The position numbers and the translations under genes were made by a program. This document shows, piece by piece, positions 3,601 through 54,693 of a stretch of 64,000 nt of DNA. The DNA comes from Pirellulales bacterium (GTDB taxonomy: Bacteria; Planctomycetota; Planctomycetia; Pirellulales; PALSA-1355), in assembly GCA_022844125.1 (NCBI GenBank), contig JALHMI010000004.1, forward strand, positions 226,777-290,776, given 5' to 3'. The number at the start of each line of letters is the position of its first letter. Position 1 is the first letter of the stretch. The notes below the pieces were generated by a model that worked only from the letters and a program-made list of their open reading frames with translations, did not search any database and was not told the DNA's origin.

Positions 3601-4075
3601 ACTGATGCCCGTTGCGCACCCACGCCTTCGACGTCGCATCTGGAGTCTCGCAGATTGCGTTCGGCAAATAAGCCGAGTAGATAAGGCACAGTGTCCTGTC
3701 GGCTCCGCTGGCGTCCTGGCAGTGATGGCACTTCACCTCGGCGGCGTGCGTGCGGAGGAGCGTGTTGAGGTTGGTGAACGAGTTACGCTGCTCCTCACCG
3801 AGGTGGTCAATGCCGACCACCTCCCCCGTCGAGGAGATCCCGAGGACGAGCAATCCGCCCTCGACGTTGCTGTTGGCGAACGCCGAGACGGTCTTGATGA
3901 CCAGCTCTTTGACACCATCGAGAGCGCTTCGTGTGATGGGCCCATTACTGACCGGCCGACCTGCTTCTTTGCGGTCGAAGTGTTGTCCCTCGAACTCATC
4001 GTCATTTGGCTGAGTCAAAAAGCTCCACGCCGACGGCGGATCGTCAAACACTCGGCGTGGTGAGGGTCGTGACAT
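695..4075 (-). CDS. AlbA_2 (Schlafen-type) + HATPase_c_4-like N-terminal module fused to a PAZ-less MID-PIWI (prokaryotic Argonaute-like) module, apparently catalytically inactive
   Basis: This is an 1126-aa ORF. Residues about 25-130 (FEGQHFDRKE...AFANSNVEGGLLVLGISSTGEVVGI) carry an AlbA_2-type signature. Residues about 315-400 (VDEAIVNAVAHRDYQ...IVKNPGRI) look HATPase_c_4-like. Residues about 735-860 look like a Rossmann-type MID domain (SPYFVVK, VPCQMI, NIIAKCGVTPWVL). Residues about 860-1126 look PIWI-like (FFVGLSYT, LVFHHAVRIS, FFVWINEH, PITTKYARNIAYL). It starts 43 nt downstream of the helicase gene on the same strand. Confidence 0.75.
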   Translation of the reverse strand: MSRPSPRRVFDDPPSAWSFLTQPNDDEFEGQHFDRKEAGRPVSNGPITRSALDGVKELVIKTVSAFANSNVEGGLLVLGISSTGEVVGIDHLGEEQRNSFTNLNTLLRTHAAEVKCHHCQDASGADRTLCLIYSAYLPNAICETPDATSKAWVRNGHQSLPMSQEVREQVRLRKGLIDLDSVPWCSYSSDALDAEVVTEFRRVFHPEATGDFSDERLLREAGAVVTNNGEEWFTLPGLLFFASNPQRVLSHAYLRLLKFVVPSSHYQNRGTPSFDKDFRGPVTKQIRAARTFLRETSFFERLQHRKPDGGFAEEPELPTIAVDEAIVNAVAHRDYQTKNPVHCEHYTDAFIVKNPGRIRQQNVDLPNRFDLGTTPLASMPHNRKLLEWLRLMRDPEGNAFVQALSEGTKRMTREMVALRLPPPSVVLLDNETILKLESKAEGRKAAFLASIQAPKTAFLNAYLLTVQKASGRATGDEVHLRLGELTKALRDSLTAHGWYIDRFSFSRIIAHRKGADLPISTAAQKLIRLFPAYCIQVQELFGRAYVVLDYTCQVLSILRLNEACRQLTSDEFVGRSCVAKADAWRAGRIVASDSEWATIHFFDNEEEKRIQVNRVIPNLSLGQIEAVVRAEGISFDLHGSIKKHSLASETGAARKRAEKIQTTADELADTIFPVIFGEYKATMTKTPVALSEFEARSEATFHVEHLNEPAVEFRDHQKLPDVREGITKYGSYDSAQHRIELVPICLSNQRQEMESLIERLKAGKFKYRGAERTFATRFIYSTIVTTEGVEHVDREVERLLAEHPEWCGNDKLNRLFLAYTPEAGYSMDDASSPYFVVKRRLLEAGVPCQMIDTGTLRNPDWKDLNLSLNIIAKCGVTPWVLPENIPDADFFVGLSYTQSRDGQRILGFANVFNSYGKWEFYAGNTTAFDFTKRSENLATLSRSALERLKRDHSLPAAPNLVFHHAVRISKDDYMAILSGVRSIAPDASVFFVWINEHNNFRLFDSRPETDGSVQRGSFVAISRRRLLLSTTGYNAYRKALGTPQPLEVSADHYRAGATDPLPCEARTLALQVLNLTKLNWASTDSFTAEPITTKYARNIAYLTAAFLRQREPFQLHPVLERTPWFV

Positions 4076-42833: not shown

Positions 42834-43445
42834 ATGCAAATGACCTATCGCTCCACTAAAGCCGCTCGTCGTGAGCTTTCCGCTCTTGCCCAGGGCCAGG
42901 GCGGCTACTTTACCGCGAAGCAAGCAGCGGAGATTGGCTACGACTATCCGCATCTGGACTACCACGTCCAGGCCGGCAATTTCGAGCGAGCCGGCCACGG
43001 CCTCTATCGGCTGCCGGAGATTCCTCAGTCCGAGCACGACGATCTTGTGCGTCTCGCTTTTTGGAGCCGCAACCGCAGCGACCAACCACAGGCTGTCGTC
43101 TCCCATGCGACGGCACTTGCCCTGCATGGCCTTTCGGACCTTCTACCCAACAGGGTCCACATCACGGTTCCGCCGGGCTTCCGCAAACCCGCCCCGAAAG
43201 GCGCAGTAATTCGACGGGCTCGGCTGGCTCCTTCTGATATCCAAGAACGTGAAGGGTTCCTAGTCACCACGCCCCTTCGCAGCATCCACGATGCAGCGAG
43301 TGATCCCTCTATCTCCGAAGAGCACCTAGAGCGAGCAGTGGTCGATGCAATTCAACGAGGACTCGTGCGGCGCTCTAAGCTCGTCGCCCTGGCAAAGACA
43401 CAGTCCGAGAAAAGGCTTTCGCGAGCTCTTGATGCTGCGCGATAA
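42834..43445 (+). CDS. abiEi: AbiEi-family antitoxin/transcriptional regulator
   Basis: The N-terminus LSALAQGQGGYFTAKQAAEIGYDYPHLDYHVQAGNFERAGHGLYRL is AbiEi_4-like. It ends 8 nt upstream of an AbiEii gene. Confidence 0.75.
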   Translation: MQMTYRSTKAARRELSALAQGQGGYFTAKQAAEIGYDYPHLDYHVQAGNFERAGHGLYRLPEIPQSEHDDLVRLAFWSRNRSDQPQAVVSHATALALHGLSDLLPNRVHITVPPGFRKPAPKGAVIRRARLAPSDIQEREGFLVTTPLRSIHDAASDPSISEEHLERAVVDAIQRGLVRRSKLVALAKTQSEKRLSRALDAAR

Positions 43446-43453
43446 TCGGCTCA

Positions 43454-44317
43454 ATGGCAAAGTCATTCAATTCCGCAGCCGCGTTCCGGATGTCGCTCGA
43501 AGAGCGGCTACGACAAGCAGCCTCCCAGCGCGGCATGCCGATCAATTCGCTTCGGCTCAAAGTAGTCATGGAGCGACTCCTTGCACGTCTTTTCGCCGAC
43601 GATACATCGCCTTGGCTCCTCAAGGGCGGCTATGCAATGGAGCTCAGGTATCGCCCGAGAGCCCGCACGACAAGGGACATTGACCTCGCCATAAGGTCCG
43701 GTGAGTTTAAGGCTACTTCCCAAATTGAAGCAATTCGCGAAGAAATCCAACAGGCCGCCGACCAAGACCTTAGCGACTTTCTCGTGTTTCAGATCGGCAG
43801 TGCCAGCACGGAACTACAGGGTGCACCTGACGGTGGCGCTCGGTATCCGGTCATCGCGCTCCTCGCTGGAAAGCCATTTGCCAGATTTCACCTTGACGTG
43901 GGGATTGGAGATCCCGTACTCCCTTCCCCCGAAGCGTTGGTCGGCGAGGATTTTCTCGGCTTCGCAGGCCTTCCGCCGGCACGCGTACTTGCCATTTCAA
44001 GGGCTCAGCAGTTTGCCGAGAAGCTCCACGCCTACACATTCCCCTGGAATGACCGAGCCAATACGAGAACAAAGGACCTGGTCGACCTGGTTCTGCTCAT
44101 AACAAGCGGATCGCTTGATTCTGCAGCGGTCAGTTCAGCAATCGAGGCCACGTTCAAGGCACGTGATACGCACTCGCTCCCGACCAATCTTCCCGAACCG
44201 CCAATTTCTTGGTCCCCGTCGTTCCGCGAGATGGCGATAGAAGTTCAGCTTCCTTCTGTCGATCTAGGAGATGCGTTCGCAATAGTCGACGCTTATTGGC
44301 AGCAAAAATTGACGTGA
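43454..44317 (+). CDS. abiEii: AbiEii/AbiGii nucleotidyltransferase toxin (DUF1814)
   Basis: The sequence FRMSLEERLRQAA...RLKVVMERLLARLF...WLLKGGYAMELRY...RTTRDIDL is the characteristic DUF1814 N-terminal NTase motif. Confidence 0.8.
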   Translation: MAKSFNSAAAFRMSLEERLRQAASQRGMPINSLRLKVVMERLLARLFADDTSPWLLKGGYAMELRYRPRARTTRDIDLAIRSGEFKATSQIEAIREEIQQAADQDLSDFLVFQIGSASTELQGAPDGGARYPVIALLAGKPFARFHLDVGIGDPVLPSPEALVGEDFLGFAGLPPARVLAISRAQQFAEKLHAYTFPWNDRANTRTKDLVDLVLLITSGSLDSAAVSSAIEATFKARDTHSLPTNLPEPPISWSPSFREMAIEVQLPSVDLGDAFAIVDAYWQQKLT

Positions 44318-44391: not shown

Positions 44392-47300
44392 TCAATCTTT
44401 GCGGCCAGCATCGGTCAACTCGTTGATGGCCTTGCGACGAGCGAGCAGCGAATGCACGATCTCTCTCGCGTTATCCATCACGACGAACCAACGGCGCTTG
44501 TAGTGGACGATCTCTTCACTGAGTCCGTAGCCGAGAAGTTCTTCTCGGTTCGCCGGAATGCCATTTAAGACGAGTTCCACAACCTCGTCGCCGGCTATGC
44601 GGGCAGTCGTCAAACGCCACCCGTTGTCGAGCTCGATCAGCGAGCCGCCATTCAAGAGGCCGAGAATATCATCCGGCGAAGAATCTGCAAGCGGCGTTCC
44701 GATTCCAAGCCGCTGCTTGACGTTTGGGACATCGGTGGGACTCAAACTAAGACCAACCAGCGCCGTGCCATCGGAAAGAATAGCTCGCGCGATCTTGACG
44801 CTCTGAATCCCCGACGACCCCATCACCTTGTCGTAGATGGGAAAAATCGCACCACTCAGGATGTGGAACCGGCGAGGTTCCGTGGCTGGAGTTCTTGCAT
44901 ACTCGGCATCCCACCAGGCTCGAGCCTCCTCCACTTCGACTCTCTCGTACTTCTTTGCCAGTTCATGCAGTTCAAGCGATCGCCTCGCACCCTTGACCGC
45001 AGTCAAATGAAGCTCACTTCGTTCTGCATCCCAGTGTTCCGAAGCAGCATAGATGCGATGGCTCTGCCGGTTCCGATAAAACCCATGTTTTGCCCAACCC
45101 GTGACTGACTCGAAGGTGCGCCTGATAACATCGACCTCCCCTTCCAAGTCATGGAGCATCGTCTTTGCACCCGAGGGCGGATCGACAAAAAGCGTTTCCG
45201 GCTCAGCGATTCTTCTCAGGTTCTTGGCCCGAATCTCCTCCACGCCGAAATCGAAGGCACTTTGACGTTTAGCTGCTTCAACCATTTCCAGATACCGCTC
45301 GTAGAAGAGATCGAAGATTTGATTCTGGGTTTCGACGTGAAGAACCATGATGCGGTTCAAGAACTGCTCAACGTTGCTCACATAATTATCACGGACGGCA
45401 GTTCGCTCTTTATTCAAGACTCCCATCCGCTCCAGAGTTCGCATTCCAAGCCCGTCGTCACTGTGGCGTCCTGACTGAATCTCCCGGTAGAGCCTGGCAA
45501 GTGCTGCTTTGCCGTATTCGTCGGTGACGTCTTCCGGGCGAAAGAGATCACTTGAGAGCGAGTGCCGCTCGCCTTTTGTCAGAGCACCAAGCGCTGCCAG
45601 GCGCTTCGAGACTGCGTTGACGAGGCGCTTCTGGCCCGCCAAGTCGAGGAGCACGAGACGAATGACTGGAGCGGAGCTTTGGTTCGAGCGGTGAACTCGG
45701 CCAAAGGCTTGCATCTGCTGGTCCGCCGACCAGGATAACTGAAATGCATAGAAAACACGCCGGTCTTGATTCTTTACGGCGACGTCGGCATGAACGCTGA
45801 TTCCCGTGGAGCCTGCACCCGAGATGACGGCGAGGCGTTTTCGGCCTTGCTGAAACTGGCGAGTCTCGTATTCGTTCAGCTCTCGGCGCGAGATACCTTC
45901 AATCTTTCGACGGACGTACTTCCCGTTCTCAAAGCGGTGCATGCGTCCACTGATCTCAGCGACGTTTCCGGCACCGAATCGAGCAACGAGCGCATCGAGC
46001 GGATTCTGCGGAAAATCAAGGTCCGCGACCTTGCCTAGCAGTTCTTGTTGCCGTCTCTGGTTCTCGCGATTGATCTCTGGGTTTCCCGCGGCGTCTTCAA
46101 CGCGGACCCGAACCACGTTGCCGGTTACTGGGTCCGTCTGCTCTTGGTATTGAAAGAGCGGAAACTGTTTCTCGATTAGCTGGACAATCATCTCGCGCGG
46201 TGTTGCGTCAAGCTCGGACAACTCCAGCCCCTCAGCGCGAGCGTCGCGAACCTTTCGCTCAGTTTGGGCTTCGCCCGTATTAAAGAGACTCAAGACTACG
46301 GAACGCCCTTGATTGAGATCACTCTCAATTGCCGGAACAAGTTCCGGGAGGGTGTAGGCCATCATGAGCTGGAGAAAGAACCGCTGTTGGGCCGAATAGA
46401 ATTGAGCATAACGGTTCGCATTTCGCCCCTGGCAGACGTTTTGCTCCGCCGACTCAAAGGCAACCAGTAGATCTGACCAGAGATCGGCAATCTGGTCGTA
46501 TTGCCGCCTCTCGTCGGTAGTCAACCGATGAAGAAGAGGCTCGTATTCGACGGCACTATTTGGAACGATGCCGCCATCCGGTAGTCGAGTTGGGCCGTAG
46601 CTTATCGTGCGCGAAAGGTACGTGCCGACACTTTTGAGATCGCGGCAGAGCATCTCCATTGCAGCCACCCCTCCCCGCTCCATCGCCACCAAGAATGCTG
46701 GAAAATCTGCGAATGGGGCGCCGGCTCCCCAAAGCCCAAGCCGCTCGTAGGGGGCCATGTGCCTTGCTTCCGTGGCTCCGGTCGCACTGAAGTATCGCAC
46801 CCGAGCCTCTGGAAAAAGGCGTTGAAGTGCGATGCCCATATTTCCACGAAGAGTTCCGTGATCCACGGTGGCCCTTCCGCCGTGCGGGGTTGCGGCGGCA
46901 TTCTTCATAAGATGCGCCTCATCGAATGCTATTACGCCATCGAACGCCTCACCCAACCACTCCGTCAATTGTTTGAAGCGGGCACGGTTACCGGCGAAGT
47001 CCGTAGCGAGCATGGTGTAGGTCGTGAAGAGCACTCCTGAGCTACCTGCGATTGACTCATTGGGCTTAAATCTCGCCTGATGAAGGATGGGAAGCGGCAA
47101 GCCCACTGCGTCGCGGTCCCTTTCTGCATCGGCACAGAGTTGGTGTGACGCCGAGATGTGGACATGCTTCCTTCGGCCCTGCGAAAGCTCGTTATAGATG
47201 AATGCATAGATCTCGCGACCCTTCCCAATTCCTGTTCCGTCTCCGTTCCAGTGTCCCTTCCTGGCCCCATCGGGAAGCAGAGTGCTTGTGGCTTGCCCGG

Positions 47301-48915
47301 CGTAGATCACGTCCTCCAGTTGGAGGTTCGAGACTCGCCCTTCTGCGATTAGGTCGGATGGAAGACGATGACGGTAGGTCACGTCCGGCGGCTCGACGCA
47401 CGCCATCGCGGTCGACTCAACGACATTTGCCGGATGCGGCTGGGCGCCGCGGACGATTGCCTTTTGCACACGGTAAGCGGCAAAAACGGTCCCCTCTTCG
47501 ATATCAACCGCCTTTGGCATGGCAGCGGATTCTAGGTCGCCTACTCCATCTCCATCTGATCGAGCGTGGCCAGTAAGAGAGACGCTGCCCAAGTGCGCAT
47601 CGCATCCGCTGCCAAGGGGATATCTGTCTTCTCGCTTTCGAGGATCATCGTGATCGTCCGAACAAGCTCCGCCTTCCGCTCGATTACAAGTTCGTTCCAC
47701 GTCAGCCACTCGTCGATCGTCACCGGAACTTCCATCGGAGACCGAACTCCCCCGGCTCCGTCCTCCAGGAGACAACCGATCAGTTCCAGGATCGAATCCA
47801 TTCCCGCTGGCGGGTCCTGTTGGAACGCTTCGCGCAGCACCGTGCTGGCCCGCTCTTTCATCTTGTTTGCAAATTCGCCCATAAACGTCCTCCTTTGATA
47901 CGTCATGCAGTAAATCGAGTGCCGCGCGAACGGACAGCCCGTCTCCGCTTACGACGGATGCCCAGTCTCTTGTCGGCCCAGTGTTGTCGATCACGATGAT
48001 TTGGTTGTCGAAGGTCGTGCCGAACTTGGCGTACTCGCGACCATCCATCCCAACATTCGCCCGCACGTGGTAACGCTGACCAATCGATGTCCACCACTCA
48101 CGAAAGGCAGGCCTATCGAGCGCCATGCCGCGTCCCACGATGGCGACAAGCCTTCCGCCTGGTTGGAGTCTTAGAAGTGCCTGCTCAATGTGCCTTGCTC
48201 CAAACGCCGTCCGGTGTCCCGTCACTCTCCCGCCAGTTGCCGAAAACGGCGGGTTCATCACCACTGCGTCGTAGACCTTCTCGGCTGGGAGAAGATTGTT
48301 CAGTCGCTCCGCGTCGAATGAAGTCGGAGTGAATCCCAACAGCGTGAGAAGGCCTCGCCGTCGCTCGTCGATCTCGTTGGTATCGACCTCGGCCCCAAAC
48401 AGTCGTGCCAGAGTCGCGATATTCCCGGTGCCTGCACTTGGTTCGAGCACCTTCATCCCGGCACAAAGGGAGGCCGCCAGGGCGACGACCAAACCCTCAG
48501 CCGGCGGCGTACTGAACTGCTGGAACTCAATTTGCGTATGATCGCGTCTCGTCTGAAGCGGGAGCCGCTTTTGTTCCGTAAGGAGCTTTTCGACCGCGGC
48601 TTCCGGACTCATGAGGTCGAGTCCGTTTCTCTTCAAGTAGAGATTGAAGCCAGCCTCAGCCGCGTCGTACATATCGCGGGCGAATCCAGCCGAGCTTCCA
48701 AAAATATCGCGTGCCAATTGCGAGACTGCCGCATTGTCAAATCGGGCGGCGGAATCCGCTTCAAGCAGCGCAGCGAAGCGAAGGGCAAAACGACCTTGAG
48801 GTGTGTCCGTCGCGGACACGGCTGCGGTCGCGGAGGGCGTGGAGAGGTCCTCGAAATCAAATCGAAGTTGGACCGAGGAGTCCTGTGGAGGTGGCCGTCC
48901 ACGGACCTTCACCAT
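44392..48915 (-). CDS. Giant N6-DNA-methyltransferase + strawberry-notch-like SF2 helicase fusion protein (typical of conjugative elements)
   Basis: This is a 1507-aa ORF. The MTase motifs are VLEPSAGTGNIA and VVMNPPFS. A low-complexity Gly/Ser/Asp/Arg insert follows. The Sbno-type motifs are GDGTGIGKGREI and FDEAHLMKNA, with a C-terminal helicase lobe. Confidence 0.8.
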   Translation of the reverse strand: MVKVRGRPPPQDSSVQLRFDFEDLSTPSATAAVSATDTPQGRFALRFAALLEADSAARFDNAAVSQLARDIFGSSAGFARDMYDAAEAGFNLYLKRNGLDLMSPEAAVEKLLTEQKRLPLQTRRDHTQIEFQQFSTPPAEGLVVALAASLCAGMKVLEPSAGTGNIATLARLFGAEVDTNEIDERRRGLLTLLGFTPTSFDAERLNNLLPAEKVYDAVVMNPPFSATGGRVTGHRTAFGARHIEQALLRLQPGGRLVAIVGRGMALDRPAFREWWTSIGQRYHVRANVGMDGREYAKFGTTFDNQIIVIDNTGPTRDWASVVSGDGLSVRAALDLLHDVSKEDVYGRICKQDERAGQHGAARSVPTGPASGNGFDPGTDRLSPGGRSRGSSVSDGSSGDDRRVADVERTCNRAEGGACSDDHDDPRKREDRYPLGSGCDAHLGSVSLTGHARSDGDGVGDLESAAMPKAVDIEEGTVFAAYRVQKAIVRGAQPHPANVVESTAMACVEPPDVTYRHRLPSDLIAEGRVSNLQLEDVIYAGQATSTLLPDGARKGHWNGDGTGIGKGREIYAFIYNELSQGRRKHVHISASHQLCADAERDRDAVGLPLPILHQARFKPNESIAGSSGVLFTTYTMLATDFAGNRARFKQLTEWLGEAFDGVIAFDEAHLMKNAAATPHGGRATVDHGTLRGNMGIALQRLFPEARVRYFSATGATEARHMAPYERLGLWGAGAPFADFPAFLVAMERGGVAAMEMLCRDLKSVGTYLSRTISYGPTRLPDGGIVPNSAVEYEPLLHRLTTDERRQYDQIADLWSDLLVAFESAEQNVCQGRNANRYAQFYSAQQRFFLQLMMAYTLPELVPAIESDLNQGRSVVLSLFNTGEAQTERKVRDARAEGLELSELDATPREMIVQLIEKQFPLFQYQEQTDPVTGNVVRVRVEDAAGNPEINRENQRRQQELLGKVADLDFPQNPLDALVARFGAGNVAEISGRMHRFENGKYVRRKIEGISRRELNEYETRQFQQGRKRLAVISGAGSTGISVHADVAVKNQDRRVFYAFQLSWSADQQMQAFGRVHRSNQSSAPVIRLVLLDLAGQKRLVNAVSKRLAALGALTKGERHSLSSDLFRPEDVTDEYGKAALARLYREIQSGRHSDDGLGMRTLERMGVLNKERTAVRDNYVSNVEQFLNRIMVLHVETQNQIFDLFYERYLEMVEAAKRQSAFDFGVEEIRAKNLRRIAEPETLFVDPPSGAKTMLHDLEGEVDVIRRTFESVTGWAKHGFYRNRQSHRIYAASEHWDAERSELHLTAVKGARRSLELHELAKKYERVEVEEARAWWDAEYARTPATEPRRFHILSGAIFPIYDKVMGSSGIQSVKIARAILSDGTALVGLSLSPTDVPNVKQRLGIGTPLADSSPDDILGLLNGGSLIELDNGWRLTTARIAGDEVVELVLNGIPANREELLGYGLSEEIVHYKRRWFVVMDNAREIVHSLLARRKAINELTDAGRKD

Positions 48916-49580
48916 TTGGCCACCTTCCTCGGCTCTGGCCGATAGTTCAATTGCCCCAGCCCTTTCTCCGCGGCAGGTGTGTGTGTTGCCGCGTCCCGCG
49001 ACGGTTTACCGCGATGGCTGTGCGAGTGTGTGATTGCCTTCCGGCGATCACGCGATAGAGTCACCTCCTCAGTCCCAAGGAGATCAGTGACTCGTGCGTA
49101 ATGAGTTTTTAGCGTCCCTCGGGACACTCCAAGAAAAACCGCTTCCAAGACAAGGCAACCGACGATGGTGGGCCAGTCTTTCCACTCGCCTTGGGCAAGG
49201 CTTCGAGCGGCAACGGACGCCGGCAGTGCAATGCTCATGTGGGCGTAGAACTGGTAGAGGCAATAGTGGCTCTCGACCAATTGATTGAACGCCCAAAACT
49301 TGGCTTGAAACTCAGAGAAGTCCCACTCCGGCTTGGGGACCCCTGTGTGATGATGGAGCACATCAATTGTTACGGTGCGAATGGCGCCTAAGGTCAGGCC
49401 CGCCGTGAAGGCGGCCAGAGTCACGTAGAGAAAACCGGCTACGGTCGGCGACACCTCCTCGCGCGTCGTAAGCCACATACGAACCGTATCGGAGAAAAAG
49501 CTCACGCCCCAGAGCACGACGAGGCCAGGGAGCAGGTACGCGATCACGAGACCGAAGTTTTGCTTCGAGACTTCCTTCAT
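48909..49580 (-). CDS. Integral membrane protein, unknown function
   Basis: This is a 223-aa ORF with about 5 hydrophobic segments. It overlaps the upstream gene by 4 nt and the downstream gene by 7 nt. Confidence 0.5.
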   Translation of the reverse strand: MKEVSKQNFGLVIAYLLPGLVVLWGVSFFSDTVRMWLTTREEVSPTVAGFLYVTLAAFTAGLTLGAIRTVTIDVLHHHTGVPKPEWDFSEFQAKFWAFNQLVESHYCLYQFYAHMSIALPASVAARSLAQGEWKDWPTIVGCLVLEAVFLGVSRGTLKTHYARVTDLLGTEEVTLSRDRRKAITHSHSHRGKPSRDAATHTPAAEKGLGQLNYRPEPRKVAKW

Positions 49581-50398
49581 CCCGCCCCCTCTTCGCTCCG
49601 CTCATCGCCGACGGCGTCTTCCGCCGCCGACACTTTGACTTGCATGGCATTGAGGCGACGATCGACAGCAATGAGCCTTCTTGGCACCTCGGTTTCAAAG
49701 GGCTTCACGATTCGTCTTCTGTACCGAAGGACTTTGGGGGAGAGACTTGCAAGGCCGGCCGCCTTGCGTGCACGGTTCACAAGCCGGAGGATATTGAGCA
49801 TCTGCTGGCGGACCGGTGCATAAGGCTCAAAGGGGACCTTGTAGAGTTCGCGTCCCAACGCTTCCGCCGAGCGCCTGGTTGCCAATTCAAGGAACCAGGC
49901 CTTTAGCTCCCTGTAGACTTCCCGCCCAATTTGAACCCGGACTCTTAGCCTTGAATCTGAGACCGCTGGAAACCTGCGATCTTGTTTCCGAAGGTACCCG
50001 CCACGCTTCACGCTGATTGAGTAGTCGCGGAACTGAATCGGGATCTTCCTTGCGTCCCGGACGTTATTCCGCTCCCGCTCGAAGAACTCATGCGTTCCGT
50101 GGGTGGCAAGGAGCACCCAGTACCGGCCAAAGCGAAGATAGTGGAGGTTGGCGAGACCTGCTTGCTTCCTCCGCACGCGGCCCTGCCTGGAGATGGCGAC
50201 ACCGTATCTCTCGATCAACTTTTGATCGACGACTTCGGGATTCTTCCCCTCCGGCACGACGCCCGAGACGTAGAACCAGTAGCCGTGTGGCAGATAGTTG
50301 CAGGCTAGTACCTGCAAGAACCCCTCGACCGAAGCTGCCTGGCAGCGGTAGTAACTGCGGAACCTACTCATGCCCTCTTGTCCGGGAAACCCGTACAA
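49577..50398 (-). CDS. Hypothetical basic protein, first gene of the methyltransferase-Sbno operon
   Basis: This is a 273-aa ORF (HGYWFYVSGVVPEGKNPEVVDQKLIERYGVAISRQGRVRRKQAGLANLHYLRF...). I recognise no family. Confidence 0.5.
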   Translation of the reverse strand: MYGFPGQEGMSRFRSYYRCQAASVEGFLQVLACNYLPHGYWFYVSGVVPEGKNPEVVDQKLIERYGVAISRQGRVRRKQAGLANLHYLRFGRYWVLLATHGTHEFFERERNNVRDARKIPIQFRDYSISVKRGGYLRKQDRRFPAVSDSRLRVRVQIGREVYRELKAWFLELATRRSAEALGRELYKVPFEPYAPVRQQMLNILRLVNRARKAAGLASLSPKVLRYRRRIVKPFETEVPRRLIAVDRRLNAMQVKVSAAEDAVGDERSEEGAG

Positions 50399-50698
50399 GT
50401 GCTTCCACCAAAGGCGAAGAGCGAGTGTGTGTGTAGCGATTCTGCCGTGATTGCTCGACGCATCAAGCAGTTATGGGTCACACGGCTCACAGAGCGCTAA
50501 CGAAGAAGGGGTTATTTTGGTACGGCCAACCCCACGCCGTTCGATTGGGTCCCCGCAAACGTGGTTCTTCCGAGTGGGCTTGAATTTGGCATCGTGCCGC
50601 ATTCTCGCCATTCCTCGAGAGAACCGCGGAGGGACAAAAACCTCGTCCAAAAACCGCGGAACCTTCGTTGCGAACCTCGCTAGAAGTACGCCCCATCC

Positions 50699-51870
50699 GG
50701 CGGCGTGCGAACTACATTCCTAGTTCGCTGCCGCCAAATTTATAGGCGTCACACTTCAAAGAACCCCGTCGATAAAAACCGCCGTGTCGAAAGACACGAC
50801 ATTCGCGTACCGTCAATCCACTGCCCAAGAAGACCTGTCCGCCAGGACGGCTCTTCTCGGACCGCTTCAAGTCCAACCAAGGAAACCGGCAGCCCCCTGA
50901 GACCCTTCGTCCATGAAGGGGCTCTCGGGCTACCTTTCGAACTTCCAACCGGCTAAGAATGCCGGTCAACCCTTTCGTCGTGGCATATGTGTCCGGCACC
51001 ACCCGTTGACACGCCAGCGGGGCGCGACTGCCTTGCCGCGCGCACCGTCCGAAGGATCCTTGTGGAACATTCGTTCCACGGAGTCATTCGGCTCTCTACT
51101 TGGGCCACACTCCCAGACTCCAGTATTTCAAGCACTTAGCTGACAAAGCTAAGCACCGGGTAACCAACCCGGCTGCTAGAGTCCTTCCTGCGTTAGTCAT
51201 GACCTCCGCTCTCCGAGTCACGTGACTATCGGGTGTTATCCCGAGGGCTTACTGGTCCTATGTCCGCGATCCCTCCACGGCATAGTTTCCAAACGCTTGC
51301 CAAATGGCCTACGTTTGATTTCAGGGGGCAGAACGTAGAAGCTCCTCCCTTACCCATGGACCAGTGCTTTTCGCCGTCGCCCAAGGCCATATAGGCCGTT
51401 GGACCACCTTTTCGGCATCGTCTCTCGGAGAACTCACCGGCAAGCCCTTTCGGGCCTTTCGTAGTTGAGCTATTCGCGTCCCCGTTTTTTCGAGGTACCC
51501 GGACGAGTCATCGTCCGGCAGCCGTTGTCACCAACTAGCTGGCTCCCTACGCCGGCCTACGTTGAACGAACCCTTTCAGGTCCGAACCCCGTGGGTGGAT
51601 TACTGGCCACAGCGTGGCCATTCACCAACTTTGAGCCATGACGGCCCCGGCCTTACGGCCGAGGTTTTTCCGCATCGCCCTGTTCCGACAGGGGAATTAC
51701 CCCCATTGGATAGAACGCCAGGATTACTTCACTCCGAAACAAAGGGAGTGAGATTACTCTGACGAGCCTCCATCGAGCTGTGCGAGCGTATCTCTACGCA
51801 CACAGCTCTACCGACGCAGCACATGATGGTGGTTAAACCATCCCCTTAGCCTGGTTGGTAGCCAGGTTTA
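50699..51870 (-). ncRNA. Candidate large structured RNA or structured leader (hypothesis only); strand assigned from a GNRA-loop bias
   Basis: The gap is ORF-poor and packed with short perfect hairpins (listed in the findings). I recognise no known RNA family. Confidence 0.3.
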
Positions 51871-52005
51871 CCGGGCGTGCTGCCCTGTTGGAAGATCAAC
51901 ATCAAAGCGTTTGAAGCTTGACGACGACAGGACCTATCCACGCCCTGCTACCAACTGATATGGATACTGTGACGGCCTCCCGCCTCCCTTTGGCGAATCG
52001 CCGCT

Positions 52006-53262
52006 CTACCCAACCAACCGAAAGCGATCGGCGTTATCCGCTCGGTACCTTACGAGCGCACTTCGCGCCCGGTCCTCCTGGTGTTGCGTAATGTGCTGCC
52101 ACAGAGAGCGACGCACGATGCCCATAAAAATCTTGGCCGCATCGCCGTTGGCCTCCCGCGCTCTCACGGCAGCCGCCAAAAAACTCAATGCTGACGACTC
52201 AGTCGCTTTAATCAAACCCTTCCGACAAGCCTGAAAGTAAAGCTCCTCGACCCGCGAAAAGCATTGAAGGTCTTCGGCACGCACCTGCCGGATCGACGGT
52301 GGATGTCCCGGCTTCTCAATCGGTCGTCTCCAGACACCAGCATCCAGGGCGGCAGGCGCCGCAGTTGTCTGGTCTTTACTTCCGTAGGAAGTTAAATCTG
52401 TTTTATATGGAGGTGCATTCTCGGTGCGCTTTTGGGGCGCCGGGCCTGCATTCTCGGAGTCAGCCCTTGCGGCCCGCCAGGCGAAATTGAACTCGAAATA
52501 GGCGCCGTCGCGATTCAGCTTCCACTGCTGCGATCCGACATCTTTCGAGATGAGCCCGCCTGCGACAAGCGCCAGCCTCGCGTAGCGCGTCGCCCGCTCG
52601 CTCACACCGAACCACTTCGATATCCAGGTTGCCTTGACGGTCCCCTTCCCCCGCATCGTGTGCCTCTTCTTGTCGAGCGAGAGCCCACGGGCCGCGTAGC
52701 CGATCACCGTCAGGAACAGGGCCGGCCGATCGGTTCTGGCCAGGAACAACAACACCCTTCTGGGCATGGGAATCGGCCGCGCCGGACTTCGATGGCAGGC
52801 CAGGGCTTCTCGCAACTCCCCGCTTCCCTCGATCCCGGTCTCGGTGAATGCGATACGCCCCGAGTCGAAGCGGAGCACCCCCGCCCGCTTGAGTCGCCCT
52901 AGCTCCCTGGCCACGATTCGCCGCGAGAGGCCGGTCAGCTTCGCCAGTTCTATCTTGCTGAAATGAGGCAGCACCGCTCGCGCGCCGTTTTTCTTCGCGC
53001 GGCCGGCCGCCTCGCGGATCGCCGCCATTTCCGCCGCTCCGCAAAACACCCTCAGCCCCGCGAAGCCGATTTGCCCCGCACGATAAGCCCAAACGATGTT
53101 CGCCAACTGAATTGGCGTCAGAACTTTATACCCGCATGGTTGATGCACGCTCACTGTTCCCCCGTCGATGGAAGGGCACTGTCGAGGCCAAAAAAATCCG
53201 CTCCACTCGCTAAGAGTGACAGGTTGACAGAGTCGTTTGGGTAGGCGTACTCTCGAAGACAT
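52006..53262 (-). CDS. Winged-helix DNA-binding protein, putative plasmid-type replication initiator
   Basis: This is a 418-aa ORF with at least two wHTH-like segments (FSKIELAKLTGLSRRIVARELGRLKRAGVL; ATWISKWFGVSERATRYARLALVAGGLI). It faces away from parA across an iteron field. The function is inferred from context only. Confidence 0.4.
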   Translation of the reverse strand: MSSRVRLPKRLCQPVTLSEWSGFFWPRQCPSIDGGTVSVHQPCGYKVLTPIQLANIVWAYRAGQIGFAGLRVFCGAAEMAAIREAAGRAKKNGARAVLPHFSKIELAKLTGLSRRIVARELGRLKRAGVLRFDSGRIAFTETGIEGSGELREALACHRSPARPIPMPRRVLLFLARTDRPALFLTVIGYAARGLSLDKKRHTMRGKGTVKATWISKWFGVSERATRYARLALVAGGLISKDVGSQQWKLNRDGAYFEFNFAWRAARADSENAGPAPQKRTENAPPYKTDLTSYGSKDQTTAAPAALDAGVWRRPIEKPGHPPSIRQVRAEDLQCFSRVEELYFQACRKGLIKATESSALSFLAAAVRAREANGDAAKIFMGIVRRSLWQHITQHQEDRARSALVRYRADNADRFRLVG

Positions 53263-53439
53263 CTGACCTTCCTCGAGAAGACCCGCCGGCAGCCGCTCTG
53301 TCGCGCGGGCTTTCTTTTTTTGGGCTATTGGATCGTTACTCGATAGCAGTCCCCTTCCGGTTTCTAAACGTAATACTGCTCACTCAATCCCATATCGCGC
53401 ATGAATTGCTGGCGCAAGCCATTAATTTGACAGCGCTTT

Positions 53440-53790
53440 TGCAACACGTATCTACGCACCAACGTTGCAACGCTGCTGCGTTGGCAGCCACCCAAACTGC
53501 TCCGGATACGTAACAACGTAGCGACGCACTAACGCACATTTAGCCGAGCAACGTATCTACGTTCGTACGTCACTGCGTTCGTACGCCCGATTTGCCCTAA
53601 CGGCGCCACAGGACTGCAGTTGACGAACTTTGACCGACTGCGTCAGTACGTTCCAACATTTCTGCGTTACTGCGTTGGAACGTCGCTGCCTGCGGGCGGC
53701 CCAGTGGGCCGCCGATACGCACGAACGTTGGAACGCACCTACGTACAACAGCAACGACGTAGCGACGCAAGAAAGTATCTTGCGGCGATA
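53440..53790. repeat. Iteron / centromere-like field of short ACGT- and CGTTG-centred repeats
   Basis: The repeat acgtatctacg occurs at 53446-53456 and 53551-53561. The repeat acgtagcgacgca occurs at 53516-53528 and 53757-53769. The repeat cgttggaacg occurs at 53673-53682 and 53726-53735, with an inverted copy at 53649-53657. The repeat gttcgtacg occurs at 53561-53569 and 53577-53585. Confidence 0.55.
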
Positions 53791-53832
53791 CGGATCTTGC
53801 GCTATTGCTGTTCTCAGAGGGAGGGGTCAATC

Positions 53833-54693
53833 ATGAACACCAAGGTCATTGTCGTTGCAAACCAGAAAGGCGGAGTAGGGAAGACCACCAACACCATCCA
53901 TGTGGCACGGGCGCTTGCCGAACGTGGTAAGAAGTGTCTGATTGTCGATCTCGATTCGTCGGCCGGCGCGACGACCACGCTGGGCGTGCCAACCGTCGGC
54001 TGGCAAACCATCTTCGAGGTCATCTCGGGCGAGGTCGACGCCGAGGAAGCCATCATTACCGATCAAGATGTCGAAGTATCCCTTCCGCAAAACATCCATC
54101 TCATTCCCTCCTCGCCGCGGCTGAATGAACTCGACAGCTTTCTCAACCGCGACGAGAACCTCGGGATCGTCGCTCAGGACCTGCTGATGGCTCCCATCGC
54201 CGGGGTCCGCGGGCGCTATGACTACGTGCTGCTCGATTCGGCGCCACTGGTCACCAAGACCACGTTTCCGGCGTACAAGGTGGCCGACTATGCCATCCTG
54301 TCCACGCAGCTCGAAAAACTGAGCTTCGAACGTTTGGAGAGTGCGATGAAGCTCATCTCCAGCGCCCAGCGAAACGGGAACAATCGCCTGGCTCTTTTGG
54401 GCATCGTGGTCACGATGGCCCCGCAGCCCACGACGCGGCTGGCCATGCATTACCTGAACCTGATTGACAGCACCTATCTGTCGGAGGAGGGGACACCGGT
54501 CCGCTTCGAGGCACTCATTCATCGGAACGTTGCCATTCAGGAAGCCGCGACGGCCAAGCAGACGCTTTTTGAGTACCAGCCCGGTCATCGCGTCGTGAAT
54601 AGCTACCGGCACCTAGCCGGCGAGATGGAAGACCGAATCAAGCGGCGTGACCTGCGGTCGGCTGCGCAAACGCCGCAGGTGGCCAATGGGTAA
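53833..54693 (+). CDS. parA: ParA/Soj-family partition ATPase
   Basis: An ATG at 53833 follows gagggagggg. It has the deviant Walker A motif VANQKGGVGKTT. The track ORF start at 53620 is an upstream read-through of the iteron region. Confidence 0.9.
   Translation: MNTKVIVVANQKGGVGKTTNTIHVARALAERGKKCLIVDLDSSAGATTTLGVPTVGWQTIFEVISGEVDAEEAIITDQDVEVSLPQNIHLIPSSPRLNELDSFLNRDENLGIVAQDLLMAPIAGVRGRYDYVLLDSAPLVTKTTFPAYKVADYAILSTQLEKLSFERLESAMKLISSAQRNGNNRLALLGIVVTMAPQPTTRLAMHYLNLIDSTYLSEEGTPVRFEALIHRNVAIQEAATAKQTLFEYQPGHRVVNSYRHLAGEMEDRIKRRDLRSAAQTPQVANG

Follow-up and report, generated by a model that had tools for sequence, protein, structure and literature searches.

A probable circularly permuted group II ribozyme upstream of an acpG homologue in a Pirellulales bacterium

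Circularly permuted (CP) group II ribozymes, which count among the few large classes of natural ribozyme, were described by Roth, Weinberg, Vanderschuren, Murdock and Breaker (iScience 2021; PMC8637638). Roth et al. assayed these RNAs in vitro, where they yield RNA circles; for the CP RNA of C. testosteroni, an 86-nt circle was shown experimentally (PMC8637638). A loop-loop pseudoknot between P2 and D2 is the most widely conserved CP-specific interaction (PMC8637638). The locus described here has in common with the class the domain order P1-P2-D5-D6-linker-D1-D2-D3(-D4), adjacent splice sites in reversed order (NU ... GGGCG), a UN bulge in D5, a bulged A in D6, a stem-loop in the linker, the P2-D2 pseudoknot, pairing between the 5' and 3' ends and the lack of an internal ORF. 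Members of the class are usually plasmid-borne near a replication gene and associated with the protein AcpG, and this holds here too. The ribozyme core is homologous to that of canonical bacterial group II introns (for a review, PMC8637638 cites Zimmerly and Semper 2015), which share with this locus the D5 hairpin, a branch site in D6 that lies 7 nt from the 3' splice site, the G-rich 5' end of D1, a D1 scaffold with a candidate exon-binding loop, J2/3 and D3. They differ from it in that here D1-D3 follow D6, both splice sites are internal, D4 holds no reverse-transcriptase (RT) ORF, and there are no flanking exons or host gene.

The window, that is, the whole stretch of 64,000 nt that was analysed, contains a gene-free gap between an acpG homologue downstream and an ORF at 52006-53262 upstream, a protein gene with winged-helix domains. 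Since the downstream gene probably starts at ATG 50371 rather than at TTG 50398, the gap spans 50372-52005. An initial annotation had noted that no ORF of at least 60 aa crosses 51143-51562 or 51762-52006, which agrees with the ORF list, and had proposed a large structured RNA or giant leader. Short ORFs occur elsewhere in the gap, for example at 50712-51002 (minus) and 50913-51143 (plus), and those inside the RNA lack coding-type conservation. The region very likely encodes a minus-strand CP group II ribozyme of ~1.15-1.2 kb (~51950 to ~50775), followed on the same strand by its partner gene acpG. The features are listed below in the 5' to 3' order of the RNA, followed by the downstream gene and the gap.

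51927-51948, minus strand: P1 hairpin, stem 51948-51943/51932-51927, with a conserved GGAU in the loop
51920-51924, minus strand: 5' strand (UCGUC) of the 5'-3' clamp, pairing with 50814-50810
51816-51883, minus strand: P2 domain, outer stem 51883-51877/51822-51816 enclosing P2a (51866-51850) and P2b (51842-51825)
51810-51815, minus strand: 5' strand (GUCGGU) of the D4-like basal stem, directly 5' of D5, pairing with ACCGGC 3' of D3
51775-51808, minus strand: domain V (catalytic), GAGCUGUGU-GCGUA-GAGA-UACGC-UC-GCACAGCUC
51707-51772, minus strand: domain VI, with a covarying inserted hairpin and, from the Rfam alignment, a bulged branch-point A at 51711
between 51705 and 51704, minus strand: 3' splice site, after ...UCCAAU
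51681-51704, minus strand: 24-nt linker, the internal "exon", GGGGGUAAUUCCCCUGUCGGAACA, a small hairpin and then an IBS1-like GGAAC(A)
51680-51676, minus strand: GGGCG of the 5' splice site, the start of D1
51189-51680, minus strand: domain I, closing stem 51674-51671/51192-51189
51115-51184, minus strand: domain II, a 10-bp stem and two hairpins, with loop UGGUU at 51166-51162
51114-51107, minus strand: J2/3, GGGAGUG, preceding D3
51106-50968, minus strand: domain III, base motif AGUAGA and 3' GAAAG
50966-50961, minus strand: 3' strand (ACCGGC) of the D4-like stem, immediately 3' of D3
50810-50960, minus strand: 3' extension, poorly conserved at 50960-50866, with a conserved hairpin at 50865-50820 and GACGG at 50814-50810
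50775-50801, minus strand: intrinsic-terminator-like hairpin and U tract from a terminator scan, GUCGUGUC UUUC GACACGGCGG UUUUU
50372-50774, minus strand: acpG upstream region, with TATAAAT, a bipartite hairpin and a 5' UTR that is less conserved in the conservation profile
49577-50371, minus strand: acpG homologue, 264 aa from ATG 50371; the ORF is open from TTG 50398 (273 aa)
50372-52005: gene-free gap

The initial annotation, judging by eye, had found no match to group II domain V, but 51808-51775 is a textbook domain V, with an AGC triad, a 2-nt UC bulge (UY in homologues), a GAGA tetraloop and five base pairs between triad and bulge. Compensatory changes are seen in 10 of its 14 pairs; the GAGA loop is invariant, as are the G and the second G of UAGAGC, the other triad bases being nearly so. 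The Rfam model RF00029 (group II D5-D6) matches 51705-51810(-) with 44.8 bits against a gathering threshold of 40 (E 1.5e-5 over the whole window), and is the only above-threshold match in the window. In D6, A51711 is bulged between A51769-U51710 and G51768-U51712, 7 nt upstream of the 3' splice site. This A is invariant in 50 sequences, the surrounding motif UUCUAUCCRAU is nearly invariant, and both the D6 basal helix and the insert covary. The upstream part of the RNA is likewise supported: P1 has the pair types GC/GU, CG/UG, AU/GC, GC/AU, GC/AU and AU/GC across 49 homologues, and in the RNAalifold consensus all 7 outer pairs of P2 and both of its hairpins have compensatory changes. Over the 5' part of the RNA as a whole, 36 of 45 pairs are compensatory.

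A match to the canonical D5-D6 model would also be expected of a conventional, non-permuted group II intron, ORF-less or decayed, with 51810-51705 as its 3' end, D1-D4 upstream, inside the 52006-53262 ORF or overlapping its end, and the downstream 1.3 kb unrelated. ORF-less group II introns exist. However, only ~140 nt of conserved RNA (P1 and P2) precede D5, and beyond them lies the winged-helix gene, which is not conserved between loci. No RT ORF is present, and the flanking ORFs match neither RVT_1 nor any other RT family. D3, J2/3, the closing stem of D1 and the motif of the 5' splice site are all found 3' of D6, each with compensatory support, and the position just 5' of D5 is connected to that just 3' of D3 by a covarying stem. 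A conventional intron is therefore very improbable.

The observed order is P1, P2, D5, D6, 3' splice site, 24-nt linker, 5' splice site, D1, D2, D3 and 3' extension, with compensatory changes supporting D1 (51680-51189), D2 (51184-51115) and D3 (51106-50968), all downstream of D6. RNAalifold with 51 homologues places 105 pairs of D1 in 19 helices, nearly all compensatory and 91-100% canonical. In the D2 stem 9/10 pairs are compensatory, and all seven helices of D3 are compensatory except one of 2 bp. A candidate pairing between the D3 loop and D1 (51645-51640/51003-50998) is conserved, without covariation. All the catalytic elements are conserved: in D5 the AGC triad and the 2-nt bulge, in D6 the bulged A51711, and in addition GGGCGA and J2/3.

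Three long-range contacts lock the permuted domains: the D4-like stem, the 5'-3' clamp and the P2b-D2 kissing loop. The D4-like stem is 99% canonical, with 5/6 pairs compensatory and a covariation score of 0.54 against 0.11 for shuffles (0/300 reach the observed value); slid controls give 13-50% canonical pairs. This stem encloses the entire D5-D6-D1-D2-D3 core and shows where the permutation falls. The initial annotation had drawn its 3' arm into a local stem at 50948-50966, which is disfavoured: the local stem has 65% canonical pairs, and the arm 50966-50961 pairs with 51815-51810 instead. In the clamp (51924-51920/50814-50810), 96% of pairs are canonical and 5/5 are compensatory, and 0/300 shuffles match the observed covariation. 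RNAalifold instead paired 51923-51920 with the 5' splice site, a pairing that was rejected for want of covariation. The kissing loop joins loop AACCA of P2b (51834-51830) to loop UGGUU of D2 (51166-51162); it is 87% canonical, 4/5 pairs are compensatory, 0/300 shuffles reach its score, and slid controls give 5-44%. The P2a loop was considered as the D2 partner and is unsupported, P2b being preferred.

The splice-junction motifs ...UCCRAU and GGGCGA are invariant among homologues. Here the junction reads ...UCCAAU, 24 nt, then GGGCGAUGCGG. The linker is bounded by the invariant ...AU and GGGCGA, ranges from 16 to 65 nt across 49 homologues, and is variable in sequence save for GAA near its 3' end; its hairpin is present here as GGGGGUAAUUCCCC. 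The D1 loop 51336-51331 is the leading candidate for EBS1: of 1251 columns compared for pairing with the final 6 nt of the linker, it scored highest. Pairing of this candidate with the linker is 61-100% canonical, with 4-5 pair types at positions -1 to -3, and examples of compensation include AUAUUC/GAAUGU, UGUCCUG/CGGGAUG and ACGUUU/AAGCGU. A conserved second site, 51569-51564, scores nearly as well with less covariation, and several clades misfit.

By analogy with the described class, the 2'-OH of A51711 would attack the downstream 5' splice site (51681/51680). The linker, its 3'-OH now free, would in turn attack the upstream 3' splice site (51705/51704), releasing its 24 nt as a covalently closed RNA circle and leaving a T-shaped branched RNA, with a 2'-5' bond between P1-D6 and the part made up of D1-D3 and the 3' tail. 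With the domains in permuted order the "exon" lies inside the RNA, and a circle plus a branched RNA are predicted where a canonical intron gives ligated linear exons and a lariat. AcpG may bind the RNA as a dedicated, maturase-like cofactor. The predicted circles of 16-65 nt raise the question of whether the functional output is the circle, the branched RNA or cleavage itself.

The small size of these circles (24 nt here, 16-65 nt in homologues), which is below anything shown experimentally, would also suit a catalytically dead CP relic that forms no circle and persists only as a structured 5' leader or as an RNA scaffold controlling or binding AcpG. In-cell processing is unproven for every published CP member, and many homologues have no clear terminator before acpG, making co-transcription possible. 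Nevertheless, the positions that matter solely for catalysis (in D5 the AGC triad and the bulge, then the bulged A, GGGCGA, the terminal AU and J2/3) vary little or not at all among homologues with 54-78% overall identity, and covariation of the exon-binding loop with the end of the linker is hard to explain without selection on the splice sites. A dead relic is thus improbable, and an active CP ribozyme is preferred.

The 5' end of the CP RNA probably lies a few nucleotides upstream of P1, at ~51950-51960. Homology to other loci found by nhmmer starts around P1; upstream of P1 it ends and the protein gene begins. In some homologues, TTGxxx-N17/18-TAxxxT promoter-like spacing can be read from the alignment upstream of P1. 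At the other end, the conserved hairpin of the 3' extension (50865-50820) has 17 pairs, 16 of them with compensatory changes, and the terminator-like hairpin 50801-50775 is probably the 3' end of the RNA. By strict criteria, a covarying hairpin followed by UUUU occurs at the same offset in ~18/52 homologues. Downstream of it, a -10-like TATAAAT lies at 50744-50738, with TATA-like hexamers at the matching offset in the closest homologues, and the bipartite hairpin 50735-50699, with its GGAAU loop, is conserved. We infer that 50774-50372 holds the acpG promoter and 5' UTR, in a phylum for which no promoter model exists. The RNA occupies only part of the gap, from ~51950 to ~50775, and the last ~400 nt (50775-50372) belong to the acpG upstream region. 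It precedes acpG on the same strand, as a giant leader would, but that description is at most partly right because in this copy the RNA stops short of acpG with its own terminator.

The minus strand is also favoured by folding energy. The minimum free energy of 51955-50960 is -448.6 kcal/mol for the minus strand (z = -8.28 against shuffles) and -384.3 kcal/mol for the plus strand of the same region (z = -4.02). Together with covariation among ~50 homologues and the Rfam match, this strand asymmetry upholds the earlier proposal of a large structured minus-strand RNA that is not a repeat family, a pseudogene or an origin. The hairpins listed in the initial annotation are all present in the sequence, and most correspond to real helices backed by covariation, with compensatory changes in nearly every helix across those homologues. 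Thus 51848-51868 is P2a, 51825-51842 is P2b, and 51786-51799, with the GAGA loop, is the distal stem of domain V. The hairpin inserted in D6 is 51729-51751; D1 contributes 51648-51661, 51499-51518 and 51444-51455, D2 its two hairpins 51135-51153 and 51156-51172, and D3 the hairpin 51062-51079. Near the 3' end, 50783-50798 is the terminator stem, and 50699-50735 falls within the acpG 5' UTR. The three minus-strand GNRA loops that had been pointed out are present. The palindrome at 51217-51226 is present as well and forms one strand of a long-range D1 helix (51427-51419/51222-51214).

Homologues of the RNA were collected via the neighbouring protein instead of by DNA search; a distant DNA search of the gap against PLSDB plasmids gave no match. 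The protein search yielded 246 confirmed relatives in species-representative genomes, 80 of which were inspected; related protein clusters number 1469. At 76 of these 80 genomic loci, a homologous RNA lies directly upstream of acpG on the same strand, and 51 of the 76 carry a full-length RNA, 54-78% identical; such a number of diverged sequences enables structure modelling. The module lies directly downstream of repA-type genes at 44/80 loci. Its hosts are mostly Planctomycetota, with cyanobacterial and Bacillus plasmids in addition, and the published supplementary lists of CP RNAs contain none of the host names of this branch (Planctomycetota, Cyanobacteriota, Bacillus, Acidobacteriota and others). 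The locus represents a large branch of the class that is apparently undescribed, in phyla whose names those lists lack. The closest plasmid relative is on the Planctomycetes plasmid pK2D_1, where the same D5-D6 (49.4 bits) and, after it, a 1.26-kb non-coding stretch precede the gene of a protein with 48% identity. The module, we infer, is carried in the replication/partition region of plasmid-like elements in the rigid gene order repA, CP RNA, acpG, and this fixed synteny makes formation of an AcpG-RNA complex testable. The RNA-then-acpG module explains the recurrent 1.3-1.9-kb "empty" gap beside replication genes in planctomycete and cyanobacterial plasmids.

A position directly downstream of repA-type genes raises the alternative of a DNA element, an oriV or other plasmid protein-binding region between the repA-like gene and the next operon, and Roth et al. 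noted one CP RNA near a plasmid origin (PMC8637638). This alternative is very unlikely. No direct repeats or iterons were found in 50300-52100; iteron-like repeats with an 8-nt period instead lie at 53445-53694, between repA and parA. Hundreds of compensatory changes and a strand asymmetry that depends on G-U pairs indicate selection on a single-stranded RNA fold. Furthermore, deletion of most of the CP RNA from pTT8 left replication unaffected, according to Aoki and Itoh 2007 as cited in PMC8637638.

Several ORFs of 60-96 aa in the gap, with tblastn matches in related loci, are what a decayed protein gene might leave, its hairpins having arisen by chance. The matches, however, are short, fragmentary and frame-breaking, are equally common for overlapping ORFs on both strands, and track the most conserved RNA blocks, which indicates conservation of nucleotides rather than coding conservation. 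The substitution pattern is pairwise-compensatory, and the distant DNA search against plasmids, as stated, found nothing. On these tblastn, substitution and plasmid-search results a pseudogene is very improbable, and the CP ribozyme remains the preferred reading. Among other large RNAs, GOLLD, ROOL, OLE, HEARO and raiA are likewise highly structured and often on mobile elements; here, in contrast, there is a recognisable ribozyme core and no Rfam match to them at E up to 10. Over 49500-54500 at that threshold, Rfam gave RF00029 alone: there was no D1-D4 model, no GOLLD, ROOL, OLE or HEARO, and, in line with the initial annotation, no RNase P, tmRNA or 6S identity.

The partner protein provides a link to the published CP RNAs. 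An hhalign comparison of this protein family with eight published AcpG sequences gave a probability of 98.2% (E 3.3e-14, 179 aligned columns), and BLASTP matched a Thermus AcpG with E 8e-6, while BLASTP against TTHC007 itself found nothing. With the TTHC007 family the homologue shares ~180 aligned columns, a length of ~230-270 aa, the lack of a Pfam family and an adjoining CP RNA; it differs in having ~20% identity to Thermus and proteobacterial members and in its fixed downstream, co-oriented gene. Searches of Pfam, NCBIfam, PADLOC and PDB sequences returned no meaningful family or match.

The AlphaFold model of the homologue (pLDDT 89) gives a weak, unconfirmed hint of a reverse-transcriptase-like fold. 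Its best sub-threshold Foldseek matches in the PDB are a group II intron RT, retron RTs, GsI-IIC RT, DRT2, NS5B and telomerase, and in BFVD viral RNA-dependent RNA polymerases; all have E >=5e-3, none reaching 1e-3, with TM 0.25-0.37. For a Thermus AcpG model, the longest alignment is to GsI-IIC RT (rank 5, E 1.5). Profile searches of AcpG against Pfam, PADLOC, NCBIfam and the PDB gave no RT signal, and comparing AcpG profiles by hhalign with one RT of a group II intron (pO157p35) was likewise negative. YxDD is absent, the candidate hairpin being HYLRF-GR-YWVLLAT, and no acidic residue is invariant across AcpG superfamily alignments, making polymerase activity unlikely.

Since the flanks of D5 (on its 5' side) and D3 (on its 3' side) are paired in the covarying D4-like stem, acpG, which sits 3' of D3, occupies the topological equivalent of the D4 loop, where the ORF of a group II intron RT lies; AcpG is about half the size of such an RT. 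It is conceivable, though rather doubtful, that AcpG is a shrunken, catalytically dead descendant of a group II intron RT/maturase, reduced to palm and thumb, within an "inside-out" intron with the CP ribozyme. One possible origin of such an arrangement is a tandem or circular copy of an intron that was opened 3' of its ORF. The intron would form a ribonucleoprotein with AcpG in the maturase role, and plasmids and ICEs would have domesticated it at a site directly after repA.

Compared with published CP members, this branch has several traits of its own. The 5' strand of the end pairing is 51924-51920, just 3' of P1, whereas in published members it is the P1 loop. D5 has a GNRA tetraloop here and a hexaloop there, and D5-D6 are more canonical: they pass RF00029, while the pTT8 member gives no match even at E up to 1. 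The linker is 24 nt (16-65 nt in homologues), against the 86-nt circle of C. testosteroni. The covarying D4-like stem between the D5 and D3 flanks is a trait of this clade, as is a longer 3' extension with a conserved 17-bp hairpin. Finally, acpG is almost always immediately downstream and co-oriented, whereas its orientation and distance vary in the published set. The more canonical D5-D6 and the D4-like stem may place the branch close to the ancestral permutation event.

Searches at the sequence level do not connect this clade with the published CP RNAs, and its membership in the class therefore rests on architecture, short motifs and the AcpG link. With nhmmer, two published CP sequences and the clade gave no match to each other at E up to 10, whichever side served as the query. 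Motifs common to the clade and the published CP alignment are GGGCGAxGCGGAAA, UAxAGCUCAA, CCCUGAAA, CUAACGCxGGAA and the UN bulge in D5, and in the D3 region the published sequences also have GGGAG...AGUAGxA and GAAAG...GACCGG. A covariance model of the clade spanning P2 to the 5' splice site (R1) gave a single weak match, at T. thermophilus pTT8 5774-5934(-) (13 bits, rough E 0.04), and this match falls inside the published CP RNA coordinates 6026-4860.

The gap between the stop of the ORF at 52006-53262(-) and the start of the ORF at 49577-50398(-) had been singled out in the initial annotation as ORF-free and hairpin-dense, a candidate large structured RNA or giant leader. The ORF list holds no ORF of at least 60 aa across 51143-51562 and 51762-52006, and the hairpins described there are present in the sequence. 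When 51955-50960 was folded as RNA, the minus strand reached −448.6 kcal/mol (z = −8.28 versus dinucleotide shuffles) and the plus strand −384.3 kcal/mol (z = −4.02), so the density of structure is far above chance and strand-specific. An Rfam scan, one of the checks proposed with that annotation, was run on the whole window and gave a sole above-threshold match, RF00029 (group II domains V and VI), at 51705-51810(-), with 44.8 bits against a gathering score of 40. In the RF00029 alignment, domain V is textbook: it has the AGC triad (51807-51805), a bulge of 2 nt and a GAGA tetraloop. Domain VI contains a large insertion as well as a bulged A. The hairpin at 51786-51799, in a region where no match to group II domain V had been recognized by eye, is the tip of domain V in this alignment. 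The reading as a large structured minus-strand RNA was thus right, given the strand-specific folding, the Rfam match and the covariation described below.

A canonical arrangement, with domains D1-D4 upstream of D5, has no room here, as only ~200 nt separate D5 from the next gene upstream. That gene encodes two winged-helix-like regions and is not a reverse transcriptase; a divergent ParA gene lies beyond it. Circularly permuted (CP) group II ribozymes, as described by Roth et al. 2021 (PMC8637638), have the order P1-P2-D5-D6-linker-D1-D2-D3-D4, and their short linker lies between the 3′ splice site, NU, and the 5′ splice site, GGGCG. These RNAs have a UN bulge in D5 and class-specific pseudoknots, lack an internal ORF, and are often associated with a protein of ~260 aa, AcpG (PMC8637638). 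On the minus strand of the window, D6 ends ...UUCUAUCCAAU, followed by a small hairpin and then GGGCGAUGCGGAAA. Short motifs are common to the window and the published CP Stockholm alignment, in the same order: GGGCGAxGCGGAAA, UAxAGCUCAA, CCCUGAAA, CUAACGCxGGAA, GGGAG...AGUAGxA and GAAAG...GACCGG. We identify the gap as encoding a circularly permuted group II ribozyme that is accompanied by its acpG gene. The CP kind itself has been known since 2021, and the window RNA belongs to a large, apparently undescribed clade of it.

Alignments of homologous RNAs show a conserved, covarying, permuted group II core in which the predicted catalytic and splice-site elements are all intact.

Predicted elements of the CP RNA and the acpG upstream region (minus strand)
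51948-51927: P1, covaries
P1 to the 5′ splice site: 50 sequences, 45 pairs, 36 compensatory
P2 outer stem: 7/7 pairs compensatory
P2a and P2b hairpins: both covary
D5: 14 pairs, 10 compensatory
D6: basal helix and inserted hairpin covary
51680-51189: D1; 19 helices with 105 pairs (51 sequences, L-INS-i alignment), 91-100% canonical, almost all compensatory
51674-51671/51192-51189: D1 closing stem, UGCG/CGCA
51184-51115: D2, 10-bp stem, 9 pairs compensatory
51106-50968: D3, seven helices, compensatory except one of 2 bp
50865-50820: 3′ hairpin, 17 pairs, 16 compensatory
50801-50775: terminator-like hairpin and U tract
50744-50738: −10-like TATAAAT, downstream of the terminator-like hairpin
50735-50699: conserved bipartite hairpin, downstream of the −10-like element

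To find long-range contacts, every pair of alignment columns was scanned, and shuffle and slide controls were then applied. Beyond the nested structure, this gave three contacts, and in each case 0/300 shuffles reached the score. The first, a D4-like stem (51815-51810/50966-50961; 99% canonical, 5/6 pairs compensatory), links the nucleotides just 5′ of D5 with those just 3′ of D3, and therefore closes the ribozyme core and marks the permutation point. The second is a 5′-3′ clamp, 51924-51920/50814-50810 (5/5 pairs compensatory), which shows that the predicted functional RNA spans at least 51948 to 50810. The third is a kissing loop between AACCA in P2b (51834-51830) and UGGUU in D2 (51166-51162), with 4/5 pairs compensatory; it is the counterpart of the P2-D2 pseudoknot of published CP RNAs. 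Runs of at least five pairs with at least four compensatory were confined to known helices, the D4-like stem and the clamp, with no noise runs of this kind in the all-column-pair scan.

About 18 of 52 homologues, under strict criteria, have a covarying hairpin followed by UUUU at the same offset as the terminator-like hairpin. Sequence from 50699 to the ATG at 50371 is less conserved. Based on the alignment of protein homologues, this ATG is most likely the acpG start, which would place the gap at 50372-52005. Given the terminator-like hairpin and the elements downstream of it, the notion of an RNA filling the 1.6-kb gap holds for an RNA gene of 1.15-1.2 kb, and the remaining ~400 nt are the acpG upstream region.

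The predicted 3′ splice site follows U51705 and the predicted 5′ splice site precedes G51680, leaving a 24-nt linker, 51704-51681 (GGGGGUAAUUCCCCUGUCGGAACA); linkers in 49 homologues are 16-65 nt long. For the last six linker nucleotides (consensus GAANNN), the best partner among 1251 aligned columns is the terminal loop at 51336-51331 (NNNUUC). The three variable positions show 4-5 pair types, and individual sequences contain clear compensations; a further site, with a conserved GUUC, has almost as good a score. Pairing of 51336-51331 with the linker end is a probable EBS1-IBS1 interaction. By analogy with the five CP ribozymes covered by in vitro work (PMC8637638), the branch-point A51711 would attack the 5′ splice site, and the 3′-OH of the freed linker would then attack the 3′ splice site, yielding a 24-nt circle and a T-shaped branched RNA. 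Since the circle sequence is unconserved except for its exon-binding part, we speculate that the circle may be less important than the branched ribozyme or the cleavage event. Synteny suggests that AcpG would work on or with the CP RNA.

A distant blastn search of PLSDB with the gap DNA gave no match. Plasmid pK2D_1 of Planctomycetes bacterium K2D encodes a homologue with 48% identity to the acpG product, and an unannotated 1.7-kb gap upstream of the homologue has an RF00029 match of 49.4 bits. Alignment of this gap with that of the window extends from D5 to ~900 nt downstream; single-stranded blocks are conserved and stems vary. The acpG product has 1469 relatives in a large protein collection; 246 relatives were confirmed by scanning a single genome for each species, and 80 loci were fetched. 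In 76 of these 80, nhmmer with the window RNA identified a homologous RNA immediately upstream and on the same strand, and 51 of the 76 RNAs are full-length, with 54-78% identity. Hosts are mainly Planctomycetota (Pirellulales, Gemmataceae, Planctomycetaceae, Thermoguttaceae, Kuenenia and Phycisphaerae), with a few Acidobacteriota, Polyangiales, Alcaligenaceae and Thiocystis. Cultivated carriers include Planctomycetes bacterium K2D (pK2D_1), Pirellulaceae SH449, Aeoliella straminimaris, Leptolyngbya boryana and Calothrix NIES-4101. Some genomes have two or three diverged RNA-acpG copies on different contigs, some of them megabase-sized: fetched loci L036, L038 and L039 come from one Planctomycetaceae MAG, L005 and L007 from one Gemmataceae MAG, and L002 and L003 from one Pirellulales MAG. 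The module is multicopy, either on several replicons or through chromosomal integration.

Nhmmer found no connection between the window-type clade and two published CP sequences. A covariance model of window-type RNAs from P2 to the 5′ splice site gave a single weak match on T. thermophilus pTT8, 5774-5934(-) (13 bits, rough E 0.04), which falls within 6026-4860, the published coordinates of the CP RNA. Strong matches to this model also precede acpG-like genes, in the same orientation, on three other plasmids: Calothrix NIES-4101 plasmid5, with copies of 112 and 98 bits; Leptolyngbya boryana pLBX, with 88 bits; and Bacillus cereus p30090_4, with 56 bits. In the Calothrix plasmid, the 5′ parts of the RNAs lie at 42-270 and 2196-2412, ~2 kb apart, and within the examined stretch an acpG-like gene follows only the second. 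The names Planctomycetes, Cyanobacteria, Bacillus and Acidobacteria are absent from the supplementary lists of PMC8637638. RF00029 does not match the pTT8 CP RNA even at E up to 1, so D5-D6 of the window clade are more canonical than those of the published Thermus type. No family in Rfam release 15 recognizes the published CP RNA at pTT8 4860-6026, where the unrelated Actinomyces-1 model gives the sole weak match; the class is therefore missed by standard annotation pipelines.

The acpG ORF matched no family in Pfam, NCBIfam or PADLOC. BLASTP of its product against a Thermus AcpG from Data S3 of PMC8637638 gave a match over the N-terminus (E 8e-6), and found nothing against TTHC007 itself. Profile-profile comparison of 15 family members with eight published AcpG proteins gave 98.2% probability (E 3.3e-14, 179 columns), which identifies the product as an AcpG homologue. 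AlphaFold models were obtained for the window AcpG (pLDDT 89.3, pTM 0.79) and the Thermus AcpG (pLDDT 92.2, pTM 0.90). Foldseek with the window model gave no PDB match below E 1e-3. The best matches comprised a reverse transcriptase from a group II intron (8h2h_D, E 5e-3), that of retron Ec86 (7v9x_A, probability 0.96, TM 0.37), retron Eco8 and GsI-IIC RT; others included DRT2, HCV NS5B, telomerase, AbiA, Abi-P2 and Prp8. Against viral models, RNA-dependent RNA polymerases came out on top. The likeness was only weakly reproduced with the Thermus model, for which GsI-IIC RT ranked fifth among PDB matches (E 1.5), yet with the longest alignment. These matches, together with the D4-like stem, which places acpG at the topological position of an intron ORF, suggest that AcpG could be a vestigial reverse transcriptase/maturase, an origin that we consider rather unlikely. 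Sequence and profile tests of AcpG, among them hhalign against a single group II intron reverse transcriptase, were negative, and no acidic residues are conserved across the AcpG superfamily.

The window forms the backbone of an ICE or conjugative plasmid and encodes a TrwC relaxase, Dam, ArdA, ParA, AbiEi/AbiEii, a Strawberry-notch-type helicase-methylase and a type I restriction-modification system. Immediately upstream of the RNA, and on its strand, three other inspected loci have a 480-aa replication-initiator-type gene; two of the three match Pfam RPA (PF10134). By tblastn, such a gene occupies this position in 44 of the 80 loci; pK2D_1 has a RepA nearby as well. The 418-aa protein of 52006-53262(-), which sits where related loci have RPA-family (PF10134) initiators, has weak winged-helix matches (HTH_Crp_2, 96-137; LexA_DNA_bind, 312-355) and no BLASTP similarity to those initiators. 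It probably represents a different replication-initiator family.

The gap itself could be read as the origin (oriV), and one CP RNA does lie near a plasmid origin (Roth et al., PMC8637638). However, the iteron-like repeats, of 8-nt period, fall between repA and parA (53445-53694) and none were found in the RNA region, which argues against the oriV reading. On pTT8, deletion of most of the CP RNA left replication unimpaired (PMC8637638). The repeats at 53445-53694 resemble iterons or a parS site, and so are the likely origin or partition site of the element. They comprise six overlapping copies of a 32-nt unit with the motifs TACGxxxx and TGCGTTxx, in the region between the repA-like start at 53262(-) and the parA start at 53620(+).

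Homologues of the 52006-53262 protein (38% identity) precede acpG-like genes in two fetched loci. In L065, the repA-like match spans 2685-3848 and the acpG-like gene follows almost at once, at 4001; in L072, the corresponding positions are 384-1634 and 1763. Nhmmer finds no CP RNA in either locus, so acpG can occur without an adjacent RNA in the window-type clade too. Downstream of acpG, a 223-aa ORF without a family (48909-49580(-)) overlaps the acpG stop by 4 nt. An ORF at this position is absent in loci L085 and L087 and encodes 172 aa in L086; in L083 (223 aa) and L084 (100 aa, contig end) the proteins are the same. In the window, the 223-aa ORF is followed by a 1507-aa methylase/Strawberry-notch helicase (44392-48915). 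An AbiEi/AbiEii toxin-antitoxin-type pair (42834-44317(+)) and a type I restriction enzyme R subunit (40212-42569(-)) adjoin the replication module, and ArdA, Dam and TrwC lie on its other side, typical plasmid or ICE defence and anti-defence cargo, as seen through locus L082.
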